From a virus, in UHGV virus genome UHGV-0059442: a stretch of DNA of 12,316 bases; one strand, 5' to 3'. Position 1 is the stretch's first letter. Each line of letters starts with the position of its first letter. The notes beneath the pieces are model-generated. The model was not told where the DNA came from. It did not search any database and saw only the letters and a program-made list of their open reading frames with translations. A program made the position numbers and the translations under genes. This document shows, piece after piece, positions 50 to 12,266 of this stretch.

Positions 50-532
50 ATGGAAGAACTTCACTTTGTTTACATCAATGCAAATGGTCGTATCGGAGTT
101 CACTCAATACAGAGCATCAGTTATAGCGAAAATCATATACAGGGCATTTGTAAGAACACCGATCGAATAAAAACCTTCCGAAAAGACCGCATTCTTAAAC
201 AGTACGATTCACCAGAACAAGCCATTCAGGAATGCGCGTCATTCCTCCCCGAAAACTACTCACACCTCACTAAGCAGTCTGGTCCGAAAAAAAATACATT
301 CGATGTGTGTTTCACCGGATTTAAGAAAGCAGATAAAGAAAGATTGGTTGATAAGGCGAATGAACAAGGATTAACGGTAAGAACCTCTGTAACCCAAAGC
401 CTTCAGATGCTCTGTTGCGGTTACAATGCAGGCCCATCAAAAGTATCGGCAGCCAGGATGAAAGGCACAATCATCATAGATGAGCCTGGCTTTATACATT
501 TTCTTGAAACGGGTGAGATCCCAGATGAATAA
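50..532 (+). CDS. Hypothetical two-domain protein: N-terminal WYL-like domain, C-terminal BRCT-like domain
   Basis: Complete 160-aa ORF; in-frame stop at 26-28 upstream; AAGAGG Shine-Dalgarno about 7 nt before ATG at 50. N-terminal segment FVYINANGRIGVHSIQSISYSENHIQGICKNTDRIKTFRKDRI fits the WYL-domain pattern ending in R-x-FR-x-DRI. C-terminal segment FDVCFTGFKKADKERLVDKANEQGLTVRTSVTQSLQMLCCGYNAGPSKVSAARMKGTIIIDEPGFIHFL resembles a BRCT fold as found at the C-terminus of NAD-dependent DNA ligases. Noticeably lower GC than the adjacent phage late genes. Confidence 0.5.
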   Translation: MEELHFVYINANGRIGVHSIQSISYSENHIQGICKNTDRIKTFRKDRILKQYDSPEQAIQECASFLPENYSHLTKQSGPKKNTFDVCFTGFKKADKERLVDKANEQGLTVRTSVTQSLQMLCCGYNAGPSKVSAARMKGTIIIDEPGFIHFLETGEIPDE

Positions 533-558
533 AAACCTGCCGTAGCAGGTTCTCTTTC
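533..558. terminator. Putative bidirectional intrinsic terminator between converging ORF 50..532 and ogr
   Basis: Hairpin ACCTGC (535-540) / loop CGTA / GCAGGT (545-550), preceded by a run of A (531-534, giving a U-tract on the minus strand just after the ogr stop at 559) and followed by T-rich TCTCTTTCTC on the plus strand. Confidence 0.5.
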
Positions 559-777
559 TCAAAAATTCATATGCCCCTGACCACCTGGCAATGGATGTGG
601 AGGAGCAGTAGCAATCAGTGCGGGTGTCACAATAAACCGGACCACTGTTTCATGGGTAACAAAAGTGCTCCCGCAGTTAATATTTTGGCACTGGCAGTAA
701 CGCTCTTTGGTGCTTTCAGTTACTTGAAAACTGCTCCTTGTGTGTGCCGCATGACCACACTTTGGACAATTCATCAT
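559..777 (-). CDS. ogr: Ogr/Delta-family zinc-finger late-gene transcriptional activator
   Basis: Translation from the internal Met (MMNCPKCGHAAHTRSS...TKERYCQCQNINCGSTFVTHE...PHPLPGGQ) is about 72 aa with the C-x2-C...C-x4-C arrangement and strong resemblance to P2 Ogr; the 87-aa ORF in the track is an N-terminal over-extension. Putative SD (AGGGA) upstream of ATG at 777. Confidence 0.85.
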   Translation of the reverse strand: MMNCPKCGHAAHTRSSFQVTESTKERYCQCQNINCGSTFVTHETVVRFIVTPALIATAPPHPLPGGQGHMNF

Positions 778-845
778 ATCCAGATCCCTACCTTTGCTAT
801 CAGAATCATTGTAATGATACACAAAATATCAATATTGAGAACACT

Positions 846-1250
846 TCATTCCATTTCAAGATCATCAATCTTCACTTCGAGTTCAATACTGGTCGTAAAA
901 CCATTATTCAGCGTTTCCCGAAAATCAGCACTTCGCGCCCGGATAGTCAGGCGGTCCGGTGCGCCAGTGTGTTCAATCTCGTCCACTGTGAATGCCCCTT
1001 TCGGGAAAAGCGGCTGCCCCTTCCAGCCCAGCGCCAGCGTAATAACCGCACCACGGCGCGGCAGCACGATTTTTCCGTCAGCGTCATCCAGCTCCAGATC
1101 AAGCTGGTCCGCTTCAAAGCCCCGGTTATCCGTCAGCGTCAAACTCATCAGGCGGTTATCCAGCACAGTGGTGATATCCCTGCCCTCAATACTGATGCTG
1201 AATGCGGGAGTTTTGTTGCCTTTGTTAAGCAGTTCAGAGCTGAAATTCAC
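846..1250 (-). pseudogene. D: Tail protein D (late control gene D family) remnant, only 134 aa; probable internal in-frame deletion
   Basis: N-terminal ~115 aa carry the gpD-family signature (TDNRGFEADQLDLELDD...PRRGA...LGW.G...G.FTVDEIEHTGAPDRLTIRARSADF); the last ~18 aa (GFTTSIELEVKIDDLEME) look like a D-protein acidic C-terminus. Full-length P2-type D proteins are close to 390 aa. GTG start at 1250 overlaps the U stop (GTGA). Confidence 0.7.
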
Positions 1251-1426
1251 GACAGCAGCCCTCCCACCGTTTTACTGATATCGCTTAAGGCAGACGTTGC
1301 CGTGTCCTGCAGATTATTCAGTTGCGCACTGAGATCACCGAACATATCGGACAGGGATTCATCCACTCGTTTGAGCGACAGGGTGAACTCAATCCGGCGC
1401 GGCATACCGTCCCGGATAGAGAAAAA
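1247..1426 (-). pseudogene. U: Tail protein U, C-terminal fragment only
   Basis: PFFSIRDGMPRRIEFTLSLKRVDESLSDMFGDLSAQLNNLQ... matches the C-terminal part of P2-type gpU (the ...RKIDFTLSLTRVDESL... region); the N-terminal two thirds are absent and the frame upstream runs into the J reading frame. Confidence 0.65.
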
Positions 1427-2087
1427 TGGTGGCTTCCACACGGTACGGGATGATTTCTGCACTGCGAACCGTCAGACGGTCAGCCACCGGGCGGACGTTC
1501 TCACTGTTCAGGGCTTTTTCCACCACATCCAGCAGGTCTTTTTCTGCTGTTCCGTCGCCTTCGCGGCTAAGGACTGTCAGCACCACCTCTGCAGGTGCCG
1601 GACTGGTTGCACTGGCATCCGCCACCCGACCGTCGGCGCTTCGGGCATGAAATTCATAAGCTGCAGTTGGCCCCGCAACTGAAAGCCCCTCAAAGGCTGC
1701 AGGCACACGCAGGCGTAACGCTTCATCGCTTTCCATCACAGCTGCAACGGGCGGCACAGCGTCATCATCAGCAGGCGTCACCGTCAGGCGTTTCACGTTG
1801 TAGTTGGCAGCGAGCTGGTCCAGATCGCCGCCCATCGCGTAAGCCACCATCACCGCCTGCGCGGCTTCGTTAATGCGCTGGCGCAGAAGCAACTCACGGT
1901 AAGCGTTCTCCTGCAGCAATTTGGTGACGGGTTCAGATTCCAGTTCCAGCGTGCGGATCACAGCCTCCTGCTCATCTTTCGGATGAAGCGCCACAAATTC
2001 TGCCTTGCGTTCGGCAAGCAGCGTCTCAAAGTCCGGCACATCCACAATCTGCGGCGCAGGCAACTGCGAAAGGTCAATCACTGCCAT
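1389..2087 (-). pseudogene. J: Baseplate assembly protein J, N-terminal ~225 aa only (truncated)
   Basis: MAVIDLSQLPAPQIVDVPDFETLLAERKAEFVALHP...LESEPVTKLLQENAYRELLLRQRINEAAQAVM matches gpJ N-terminus; the ORF stops at 1389 after about 232 aa whereas gpJ is about 300 aa; start ATG at 2087 overlaps the W 3' end. Confidence 0.8.
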
Positions 2088-3008: not shown

Positions 3009-3054
3009 AGGGAAAGGTTGCCATCAGGGGAAGAAAGGCGGCAGTGCTGCAACT

Positions 3055-3072
3055 TGTATCAGTGCTGATACA
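3055..3072 (-). promoter_or_regulatory. Candidate Ogr-dependent late promoter element (TGT-N12-ACA dyad) upstream of V
   Basis: TGT (3055-3057) - 12 nt ATCAGTGCTGAT - ACA (3070-3072), embedded in the near-perfect palindrome TTGTATCAG TG CTGATACAA, located in the S-V intergenic gap directly upstream of the V start. Confidence 0.5.
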
Positions 3073-3076
3073 AAGA

Positions 3077-3523
3077 TCATCCCGCCAGCCATTGCAGAAT
3101 CATGTCGCGGGTCATTGCCTCAACATCATCATTTACACCCAGCAGGCGGCGCTCTGCGTAACGGACCTCCGGTCCTTTGCGACTGACGCGATCACGCAGG
3201 CCGTAATGGTGAACACGGGCAATACGCTGCACCTTGCCTTCAAACTGTACGCTGGCAGAGTCGGCGCTGGCGGCAGTTTTCAGGTATTTTGTGGTGCGCA
3301 ACTTTGCAAACATCTGACGTTTGATGCGGCCTTTCTTGCTGCGTGCTGTTACCCTGCGCGGTTCATAACTGCTGCCATCTGGATTGCGCTGCATCCTGAT
3401 ATTCTGCTGCTGTGTCCGGCGCAGTTCCTGCGCCAGCTGGCGCATCATGCGGCTTCTCGTGGCTGGTTCCAGATTCGCCAGCAAGGCACTCAGCCAGTCG
3501 TCCACCTTCTGCAGTTCAGCCAC
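3077..3523 (-). CDS. S: Tail completion / virion morphogenesis protein S
   Basis: 148 aa; position between R and V and the MAELQKVDDWLSALLANLEPATRSRMMRQLAQELRRTQQ... pattern fit the gpS family. Apparent GTG start at 3523, 4 nt after the R stop. Confidence 0.75.
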   Translation of the reverse strand: MAELQKVDDWLSALLANLEPATRSRMMRQLAQELRRTQQQNIRMQRNPDGSSYEPRRVTARSKKGRIKRQMFAKLRTTKYLKTAASADSASVQFEGKVQRIARVHHYGLRDRVSRKGPEVRYAERRLLGVNDDVEAMTRDMILQWLAG

Positions 3524-4471: not shown

Positions 4472-4575
4472 GCTGATACCTGTTGCGCCATCTGATTACG
4501 GGTGATCCAGAAGGCAATAACGGTCAGTAGATAAAAGACCAGGGTAATAGCCCACCCCGTCCAGCGCCAATCGCT
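4471..4575 (-). pseudogene. Remnant 3' end of the gene preceding lysB (lysA-like membrane protein), ~33 codons
   Basis: Reading the minus strand in the frame whose TGA overlaps the lysB ATG (ATGA) gives ...DWRWTGWAITLVFYLLTVIAFWITRNQMAQQVSA*, a hydrophobic helix tail. The frame is closed by a stop about 35 codons upstream and there is no start, so only a C-terminal stub remains. Confidence 0.4.
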
Positions 4576-7009: not shown

Positions 7010-7432
7010 TTAGAAAAAACTTACTGGAGCCTTATGGTTGCGGTGATAGGGGCAGTGAAACAATGCGCGGTATTTGTACCGACAACCGTGACGATTGAGA
7101 TACAGGAAATATACCGCTTTCATGAAATCAGTAATTTCAGTTGAGTAATTAAACTCCTGCCTTATGTTGTAATAAGCTACCTCCCTGTTTGCGATCTCAA
7201 ATAAAACTCTGGCGCGAGATATAAACGATTCACAATCAGCGGCAACCTTTTTATAGAGGTTGATTAAATCAGGATTAATATCCGCAACCAGATAGCTGGG
7301 GTAATCCGTCTCCATCATCACAGCACAGGAACCCGCGAAAGGTTCAACCAGTCGCGGGCCAGCAGGAAGGTGTTTTTTCAGTTCGGACATAATGGCGGTT
7401 TTATTTCCCGCCCATTTCAGGATGGTGCTCAT
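7010..7432 (-). pseudogene. dam: DNA adenine methyltransferase (Dam, D12 class), N-terminal ~120 aa only
   Basis: From the internal Met: MSTILKWAGNKTAIMSELKKHLPAGPRLVEPFAGSCAVMMETDYPSYLVADINPDLINLYKKV...FLYLNRHGCRY... carries the AdoMet-binding motif (EPFAGS) and aligns with the first part of E. coli Dam, but the ORF ends at 7010 without the catalytic DPPY motif. Start ATGA-overlaps the upstream traR-like gene. Confidence 0.8.
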
Positions 7433-11039: not shown

Positions 11040-12266
11040 ATGACTCTCCATCAAACTTTATCTAAAGAATTAAGAGATTTATTTGTTAGTATTTTAAGAC
11101 GTTCTCTTTTTCGCCCCCCCATCAAAATAAATGGGGATATAGTCTCTGATTTTTCAAACAGATGCGAGCAGTTCAAAGAGTGCCTAAATGAATACATTTG
11201 TGATAACAATAATGCTGCTTCCGAAAGAGTTAAGCCAAGAATTAAAACTATTGAAAAAATACAACATGGATTAACTAATTCTCTTAAAGCATTTTTATCT
11301 GGCGACATTAAAGGAGCCTACGATATTTTTGATGAAGTTTTATCATACCCTACTGTCTATAGACATCTAAGAAGAATATCCATTCCACTAAAAGAAATAT
11401 GTAATAAGCACAAGCCTTTATTCAGGGTAAGAAAGTCAGATAGACCAGTCGTAACAAGAAAGGAAATATTTCATATCCCATTCACTCATCGACATCTTGT
11501 CAATGCTCAACGCTACTCCGTTGCAGGTTTGCCATGCCTTTACTTAGGTTCATCTCTCTATATATGCTGGCAGGAAATGGATAAACCTGACTTTGATAAA
11601 TTATACCTATCATCATTTATATCTTGGGATGAGGAATCTTATATTTTAAATTTAGCTGCAGATTTTCTTTACAGTAGAACCGCTAAAGGATTTTACGGTG
11701 ATATTAGTAATAGAGATAACCTCATTAAAATATCATATTTAACTTTATGGCCTCTGATAATTGCATGTAATTATTTAAAGCAGAATGAAAACTCTTCATT
11801 TAATCAAGAATATATCATCCCAAATTTGTTAATGCAGTGGATAAGTCGACTTGAAGATAGAGCTATTGTCGGCATAGCATATCGCTCAACAAAAATAAAA
11901 AGAACAGCAAACTCACACTTAGCAACTAATGTCGTCTTGCCTCCAAAAGTAAACTATGAAGATACAATCACAAAACCTTATTGTCAGAAACTATTGTCAA
12001 TGTTTGAGTTTACTCAACCTGTATCATGGCAGGTTTTGAAAACATTAGACTATAAAATTGATAATGAAATAAATCAAGAGCAAGAAAAAGCAATTCATTT
12101 ACTAAAACAGAAAGAAAGATTAAGTGGCATACAAGATTTAAATGAAGATCTTATAAACCTTTATCCTTTAACAGACTTCTACAAGCTAGAACAGTGCATG
12201 GATCGCCTGCTACAGTATGATGTACTTGAGATAAAATCTGGCGGCACTTTGGCGGCAGAGCATTAA
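11040..12266 (+). CDS. RES-domain protein with N- and C-terminal extensions (putative standalone toxin/defence effector)
   Basis: 408-aa ORF, ATG 3 nt after the int stop; strongly AT-rich. Central region shows RES-domain hallmarks: LFRVRK..., AQRYSVAGLPCLYLGSSLYICWQEM (compare the G-R-W-N...P-x-L-Y...E core of RES toxins) and the C-terminal motif IAYRSTKIKRTANSHLATNVVLPP (compare ...PSA...N-x-V-L). About 125 aa upstream and 100 aa downstream of the RES core are unassigned. Confidence 0.6.
   Translation: MTLHQTLSKELRDLFVSILRRSLFRPPIKINGDIVSDFSNRCEQFKECLNEYICDNNNAASERVKPRIKTIEKIQHGLTNSLKAFLSGDIKGAYDIFDEVLSYPTVYRHLRRISIPLKEICNKHKPLFRVRKSDRPVVTRKEIFHIPFTHRHLVNAQRYSVAGLPCLYLGSSLYICWQEMDKPDFDKLYLSSFISWDEESYILNLAADFLYSRTAKGFYGDISNRDNLIKISYLTLWPLIIACNYLKQNENSSFNQEYIIPNLLMQWISRLEDRAIVGIAYRSTKIKRTANSHLATNVVLPPKVNYEDTITKPYCQKLLSMFEFTQPVSWQVLKTLDYKIDNEINQEQEKAIHLLKQKERLSGIQDLNEDLINLYPLTDFYKLEQCMDRLLQYDVLEIKSGGTLAAEH

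Follow-up and report, generated by a model that had tools for sequence, protein, structure and literature searches.

A stretch of 12,316 nucleotides of viral DNA (UHGV-0059442; hereafter the window) contains on its minus strand an open reading frame of 134 codons that begins like the P2-type tail protein gpD, ends like it, and lacks most of what lies between. The question raised by this locus is whether the frame (D', or mini-D) is a miniature tail protein that has been kept for some use or the trace of a deletion that happened to leave a frame readable. The features that bear on the answer are collected in Table 1.

Table 1. Coordinates in the window of mini-D, its neighbors, and the deletion junctions
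Feature	Position	Strand	Remarks
Likely terminator	534-551		Hairpin rich in G+C, lying between ogr and the 160-aa BRCT-like gene that converges on it; the P2 record has the ogr/F-operon terminator at the equivalent place
ogr	559-777	-	Late-gene activator of 72 aa (Ogr/Delta zinc finger), intact; Pfam PF04606 Ogr_Delta, E=1.5e-20
Likely ogr promoter	805-832	-	Sigma-70-like hexamers TTGATA-16-AATGAT in the D'-ogr gap; consensus match only, at the position of the -35/-10 annotated in the P2 record
D' (mini-D) ORF	846-1250	-	134 aa; GTG start overlaps the stop of the U remnant; TGA stop at 846-848
C-terminal segment of D'	846-904	-	D nt 1043-1101 (last 19 codons and stop), from alignment to intact D
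D deletion junction	905-907	-	Microhomology ATA (plus strand TAT), D nt 344-346 and also D nt 1040-1042
N-terminal segment of D'	908-1250	-	D nt 1-343 (residues 1-114 and first base of codon 115); 100% identity to 500465-1 D
U remnant	1247-1416	-	3' third of U; 52-aa ORF called at 1247-1405
J' (truncated baseplate gene)	1389-2087	-	232 aa versus the normal 302
J'-U' deletion junction	1409-1416	-	Exact GAC within a 7-of-8 match; out of frame
Palindrome upstream of V	3055-3072		TGTATCAGTGCTGATACA, TGT-N12-ACA, the site type bound by Ogr-family activators; single match, number not above chance, read from its position
M'/lysis-region (lysB) deletion junction	4562-4564	-	CTG; L, X, holin, endolysin, and M C terminus gone
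dam'/upstream-of-O deletion junction	7084-7087	-	GGTT; gene A with ori, cos, cargo genes, portal Q, and terminase P gone

An earlier note on this DNA had read the frame as a gpD-family N terminus fused in frame to the extreme C terminus of the same protein. Comparison with the intact D genes of phages 500465-1 (L001, 3167-4267) and Cartapus (L003, 21399-22499), each of 1,101 nt and 366 aa, bears this out. Nucleotides 1-346 of D' equal nucleotides 1-346 of D, and nucleotides 344-403 equal D nucleotides 1040-1099, with no mismatch to the 500465-1 gene; the absent piece comprises 696 nt, or 232 codons of the 366-residue protein, and is in frame. Both ends of the product are 100% identical to 500465-1 D, residues 1-115 being D residues 1-115 and residues 116-134 (NGFTTSIELEVKIDDLEME) being D residues 348-366, the extreme C terminus. 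The tail thus aligns as anticipated over its last 19 residues, and the proposed division into 116 and 18 residues shifts to 115 and 19, with codon 116 (AAT) straddling the junction. The junction itself had been expected near positions 895-910 and falls at 905-907. Around it, the parental left site reads GCTGAATA followed by CCCGCC and the right site CCCGGATA followed by ATGGTT, and the two have ATA alone in common; the junction therefore has the form of a microhomology deletion, in which a short sequence present at both parental sites is found once in the product.

Whether mini-D is to be called a gpD depends on what the name is taken to mean. By descent it belongs to the family: both ends are identical to D, and the order U'-D'-ogr repeats that of intact 500465-1 and Cartapus, where D also lies between U and ogr. 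As had been noted, ogr follows directly, starting 68 nt after D', a spacing equal to that in the intact phages. The N-terminal part is 66% identical to P2 gpD. By domain content it does not belong, as a Pfam scan of the 134-aa protein returned no family at E<=0.01, whereas PF05954 (Phage_GPD) is detected in full-length relatives, and a full-length family match, of about 300 or more residues, is lacking. Nor does it keep company with the partner tail genes, of which V and W alone are intact; the window lacks T, FI, FII, E, I, H, and G, and U and J are truncated.

A junction of this kind could in principle have been made during assembly. The artefact reading, in which there was no genomic deletion at all, draws on the rarity of the sequence: the element and its junction are absent from 5426 complete E. 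coli genomes, and a 43-nt junction query had no match in species-representative genomes. On the other hand, 11,250 nt of the window, with all four deletion junctions described below, recur at 100% identity in a MEGAHIT human gut-metagenome contig and in a SPAdes contig, and a Logan contig matches the window over 4,163 nt, again at 100% identity. The matching contigs carry smpB, ratA, bamE, and recN alongside, and in finished genomes related prophages directly adjoin the tmRNA gene ssrA. The exact 134-aa protein is also recorded in NCBI, ENA, and Logan, and every copy of mini-D found is identical. Four identical junctions from different assemblers and samples, within normal E. coli flanks, together with an overlap of 3 nt that is far too short for a k-mer misjoin and comparable deletions in the finished genomes of NCTC9038, FG31-1, and ECCWS199, make an artefact hardly credible. 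Since identical sequence in independent assemblies lies next to smpB/ssrA, we take the deletion to be real, and its absence from complete and representative genomes to mark a rare lineage.

The surroundings of D' are those of a disabled prophage. By megablast against phage records, the window matches 500465-1 (Wadgaonvirus) and Cartapus (Elveevirus), both Peduoviridae, at 97-99.8% identity, and alignment of the whole window to Cartapus and to an intact prophage of TUM2820 resolves it into four deletions, that in D included, each with 3-4 nt of exact microhomology at its junction. The J'-U' deletion removed ~9.3-9.8 kb, comprising the J C terminus, I, H, G, the invertase, FI, FII, E, T, and the U N terminus; that in the lysis region left M' with 186 aa and a new C terminus. 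What remains are genes for the integrase, a CI-type repressor, a 408-aa protein, early regulators, O, N, M', lysB, R, S, V, W, J', U', D', ogr, and the 160-aa BRCT-like protein. Genes with integrase and Phage_CI_repr domains are present, the corresponding contig (L005) runs into smpB, ratA, bamE, and recN, and genes essential for replication, packaging, lysis, and morphogenesis are missing. The window is thus the interior of a P2-like (186-type, Peduoviridae) E. coli prophage beside ssrA/smpB. Because the other three deletions removed the partners of D along with replication, packaging, and lysis functions, the element is unable to replicate, package, lyse, or build tails or virions.

A P4-type phage satellite, which would also be a small element with an ogr/delta-type activator, was considered and rejected: the cos region of Cartapus (1-59) and gene A fall inside the deletion at 7084-7087, and all remaining genes are of P2 type. 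Two further genes look like prophage cargo. The 160-aa gene (50-532, plus strand), between ogr and the attachment end, has a weak BRCT match and is labeled DNA ligase, exonuclease, or BRCT domain-containing across records; the 408-aa gene (11040-12266, plus strand) adjoins the integrase gene, is called a RES protein in Cartapus, and has no Pfam hit on record. Cartapus also has a 176-aa reverse-strand gene between S and V (L003, 9255-9785) that is absent from the window (3021-3174) and from TUM2820; this difference is natural cargo variation, separate from the four deletions.

Could mini-D still be made? Its start codon and an upstream GGAGG-like motif resembling a Shine-Dalgarno sequence are intact, so that, as far as the sequence tells, translation is possible. 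The earlier note had further supposed that ogr remains coupled to upstream late transcription. The proposal is plausible with one correction. From V to ogr the minus strand showed no hairpin resembling a terminator, so that read-through from V into D' and ogr is conceivable; the promoter region of the F operon, however, was lost with the J-U deletion. Upstream of D' on this strand lie the U and J fragments, then W and V, and the TGT-N12-ACA box before V is the sole late-type element remaining. Transcripts running on from the V promoter may still include mini-D, and its own start may still serve for translation, but the product would have no role; ogr would be expressed mainly from its own promoter. 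The exact Ogr protein occurs in 7821 blocks of the assembly collection.

An unexpected feature of the locus is the place at which D is broken. Five independent defective prophages, the present one among them, break at D nt 344-349, some with the site as the left end and others as the right. Two came from the 90% protein cluster of mini-D: in a prophage at the ybjL site (L014), 303 nt are deleted in frame at a TACCC microhomology, giving a 265-aa product (P0008), and in a prophage at the ssrA site (L015), 572 nt are deleted out of frame at TAC, giving a 132-aa product (P0007). The other two are in finished genomes and keep D only from nt 345 on (TACCCGCCGTG...), fused to an inverted fiber gene in FG31-1 and to gene E in ECCWS199. 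A break between A344 and T345 is compatible with each of the five events. The cluster representative (P0002, 129 aa, from a 605-nt contig) is a separate matter: its C-terminal QIGRAHV is encoded by CAGATCGGAAGAGCACACGTC, which we take to be Illumina adapter sequence, and if so the protein is a read-through artefact.

A test that does not depend on the cluster used 120-nt segments of D in the 5426 complete E. coli genomes, with a record counted as disrupted when less than 80% of the segment was covered. For the segment centered at about D nt 346 (287-406), 10 of 1093 matching records were disrupted; two of these were inspected, and the other eight may represent mosaic boundaries or clonal copies. 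A pair of control segments from other parts of D showed no disruption, in 1106 and 1193 records, respectively (0 of 2299 in total; Fisher p = 1.2e-5). These results show that breaks recur at D nt 344-349 in independent prophages, and the use of this site as both left and right end indicates a mutational hotspot rather than selection for a product.

This site also bears on how the deletion arose. The earlier note had proposed a deletion between two direct repeats that encode T-L-N-(N)-S, which would imply slipped mispairing. P2's own gpD does have the motif twice, in FRGTLNSRRE at about residue 115 and in HFLNNSGFTT near the C terminus (LNS at residues 114-116, LNNS at 361-364), and short shared sequence does stand at the junction. 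The parent lineage, however, reads FRETLNTRREK on the left and TVSPDNGFTT on the right, SPDN replacing LNNS in the closest intact relatives, whose flanks are 99.8-100% identical; in addition, this left site is found joined to four other, unrelated partners. Since four further rearrangements, each independent and with a partner of its own, involve the same place in D, the position of the break is set by the hotspot and not by a repeat, and slippage between repeats is very unlikely. What stands of the proposal is a short sequence shared by the two ends (ATA), and the repeat itself is lacking in the parent lineage; judged from the letters of the parental sites, a join at 3 nt of microhomology, in a place where breaks recur, takes over from the proposed mechanism.

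Weighing these observations, we conclude with a probability of roughly 0.85 that mini-D is a deletion relic without demonstrated function, inside a decayed P2-like prophage. Four deletions by illegitimate recombination have shrunk the prophage from ~35 kb to ~12-13 kb, and one of them took D nt 347-1042 (equivalently 344-1039), joining codon 115 to codon 348 and keeping the frame, probably by chance. As the other deletions removed the genes with which D works, mini-D is best read as pseudogene-like. A random deletion keeps the frame in one case out of three, so the intact frame lends no statistical support to selection; of three deletions in other prophages that start at this D site, two keep the frame and one loses it.

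The contrary reading takes mini-D as a retained functional miniature, for example a decoy or dominant-negative fragment of the hub acting against tail assembly of superinfecting P2-like phages, with the frame under selection. The deletion is indeed in frame with an intact start, and P0008 is a second in-frame internal deletion from the same residue; the same site, however, also yields the out-of-frame product of L015, and the products of FG31-1 and ECCWS199 lack the N-terminal part. Such use of the site in both directions, together with the out-of-frame outcomes, counts against the idea that residues 1-115 were selected for, and hence against a functional mini-D. In the AlphaFold2 model of full-length D the confidence falls at residues 111-123, which is where the break lies, and residues 1-115 may form a separate domain if this low-confidence model can be followed so far. 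The mean pLDDT is 38 for mini-D and 43 for full-length D (from shallow alignments of 22-24 sequences that are 84-99% identical), too low for either model to carry arguments about domains or contacts, and the value for mini-D, like the missing Pfam hit, speaks against a function. The carrying lineage has been found in several samples, which would suit a retained protein, but there is no sequence variation among the copies, and frame retention is the 1-in-3 chance already given. We regard a functional miniature as very unlikely, and mini-D as an ordinary object.

Other break sites are shared as well. The J break of the window (J'-U', 1409-1416) lies 1 nt from the J'-T' break of NCTC9038 (L004), at L018 27565, where the sequence ...TATCCGGGA(C) immediately precedes the break; the right partners differ, being U at 36914 in the window and T at 36392 in NCTC9038. 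Four more sites shared by independent defective prophages, three in T and one in U, are at L018 35669-35672, 36178-36179, 36392-36396, and 36843, and involve L014, L015, L022, L004, and P0023; some of the T/U sites serve as the left end in one prophage and as the right end in another. At three or four sites the left and right ends overlap by ~4 nt (ATCA, TACC, ATAT, AAGG), an overlap suggestive of a staggered cut, with only four sites to go by. Many E. coli proteins known from single genomes (P0017-P0066) join O, N, M, lysozyme, V, sheath, tube, T, or U in frame to D, which they enter at codons 21 (twice), 26 (three times), 31 (twice), and 41/42 (five times); among the partners, breaks recur at ...RATGG in O and at ...SIQRD in the tube gene, two in each case. 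P2-like prophages riddled with deletions are evidently common. A look-up of the Ogr protein returned mainly intact prophages and one extra junction, that of L022. Strain WGI31CT (L031, 9167-9823 and 19620-26213) appears to record recombination between two P2-like prophages: its D breaks off at nt 599 and continues into the start of O, and a second tail-operon copy, in inverted orientation, is connected between I and D nt 79.

In a permutation over ten elements the endpoints were clustered with P ~2e-4, even without the D site. A tentative and, in our estimate, rather doubtful explanation is that D nt 344-349 is one of several nucleotide-precise hotspots (others being D nt 61, 76-79, 91, and 121-124, one site in J, three in T, and one in U), at which a sequence-directed DNA-cleaving activity, whether a nuclease, topoisomerase, or recombinase of host or phage, would drive convergent decay in place of random illegitimate recombination. 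We found no report of recurrent deletion breakpoints in the literature on P2-like prophages.

Several candidate causes did not fit. Pseudo-origins of the P2 A protein were set aside, as the annotated P2 nick region, GCGCCTCGGAGTCCTGTCAA, is unlike every break site. Gyrase trapped by quinolones reportedly cuts before G (PMC6379681), and none of the four putative 4-nt staggers has the initial G. Hairpins or quasi-palindromes find no echo in single-strand folding energy, which over 50 nt at 42 endpoints equals the background (-5.14 kcal/mol in both); local A+T richness at the endpoints was not significant, and the spacing to Cas12-like TTTV motifs was inconsistent. For the Din-type invertase, the crossover site is TTCTCGCATACC TT GGTTTGGGAGAA (L003 13343-13368; L018 29430-29455). 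A 5.9-kb deletion in strain 2017.04.02CC (L019) starts 2 nt from the center of this site (junction at L018 29436), and ATGGTTTT or AAACC abuts three other breaks. The fit to invertase pseudo-sites is loose and the register is off for a clean exchange at the central dinucleotide, so this cause is not supported.

Of little importance in itself, mini-D offers a well-documented case of a prophage disabled by a few short-homology deletions, and it cautions annotators that a relic may take the form of a clean in-frame ORF. Of greater consequence, perhaps, are the recurrent breakpoints, the one feature here worth following up. If decay uses few precise break sites, the inactivation of prophages would be partly predictable and would have a specific enzymatic cause, and convergent deletions could pass for shared ancestry in comparative genomics.

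The obvious system for comparison is gpD of P2 and 186 (PF05954 Phage_GPD, "late control D"). Mini-D shares with the D of 500465-1 its first 115 and last 19 residues and its position between U and ogr; it differs in that 232 of 366 residues, the Pfam family signal, and the partner tail genes are all gone. Truncated copies of D are assigned by PGAP to the VgrG/Pvc8 contractile-injection family, and a solved relative, the R2 pyocin chain 6u5h_C, aligns with full-length D over residues 15-355. Closer in kind are the cryptic P2-like prophages of NCTC9038, FG31-1, ECCWS199, and 2017.04.02CC, which belong to the same phage group, have undergone several internal deletions, joined at very short homologies, and keep ogr, two of them at the ssrA site that the window element occupies. 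In contrast to these, the window element has its own set of four deletions, and both ends of its D survive, in frame. The P2 remnant of K-12 presumably offers a further parallel, with ogrK beside a gpD fragment (yegZ). The process that they share resembles microhomology-mediated illegitimate recombination in bacteria, which takes in short-homology deletion and alternative end joining, and the junctions of the window likewise have 3-4 nt that are present at both parental sites and once in the product. The endpoints described here differ in that independent elements break at the very same nucleotides and with different partners, which microhomology alone does not predict.
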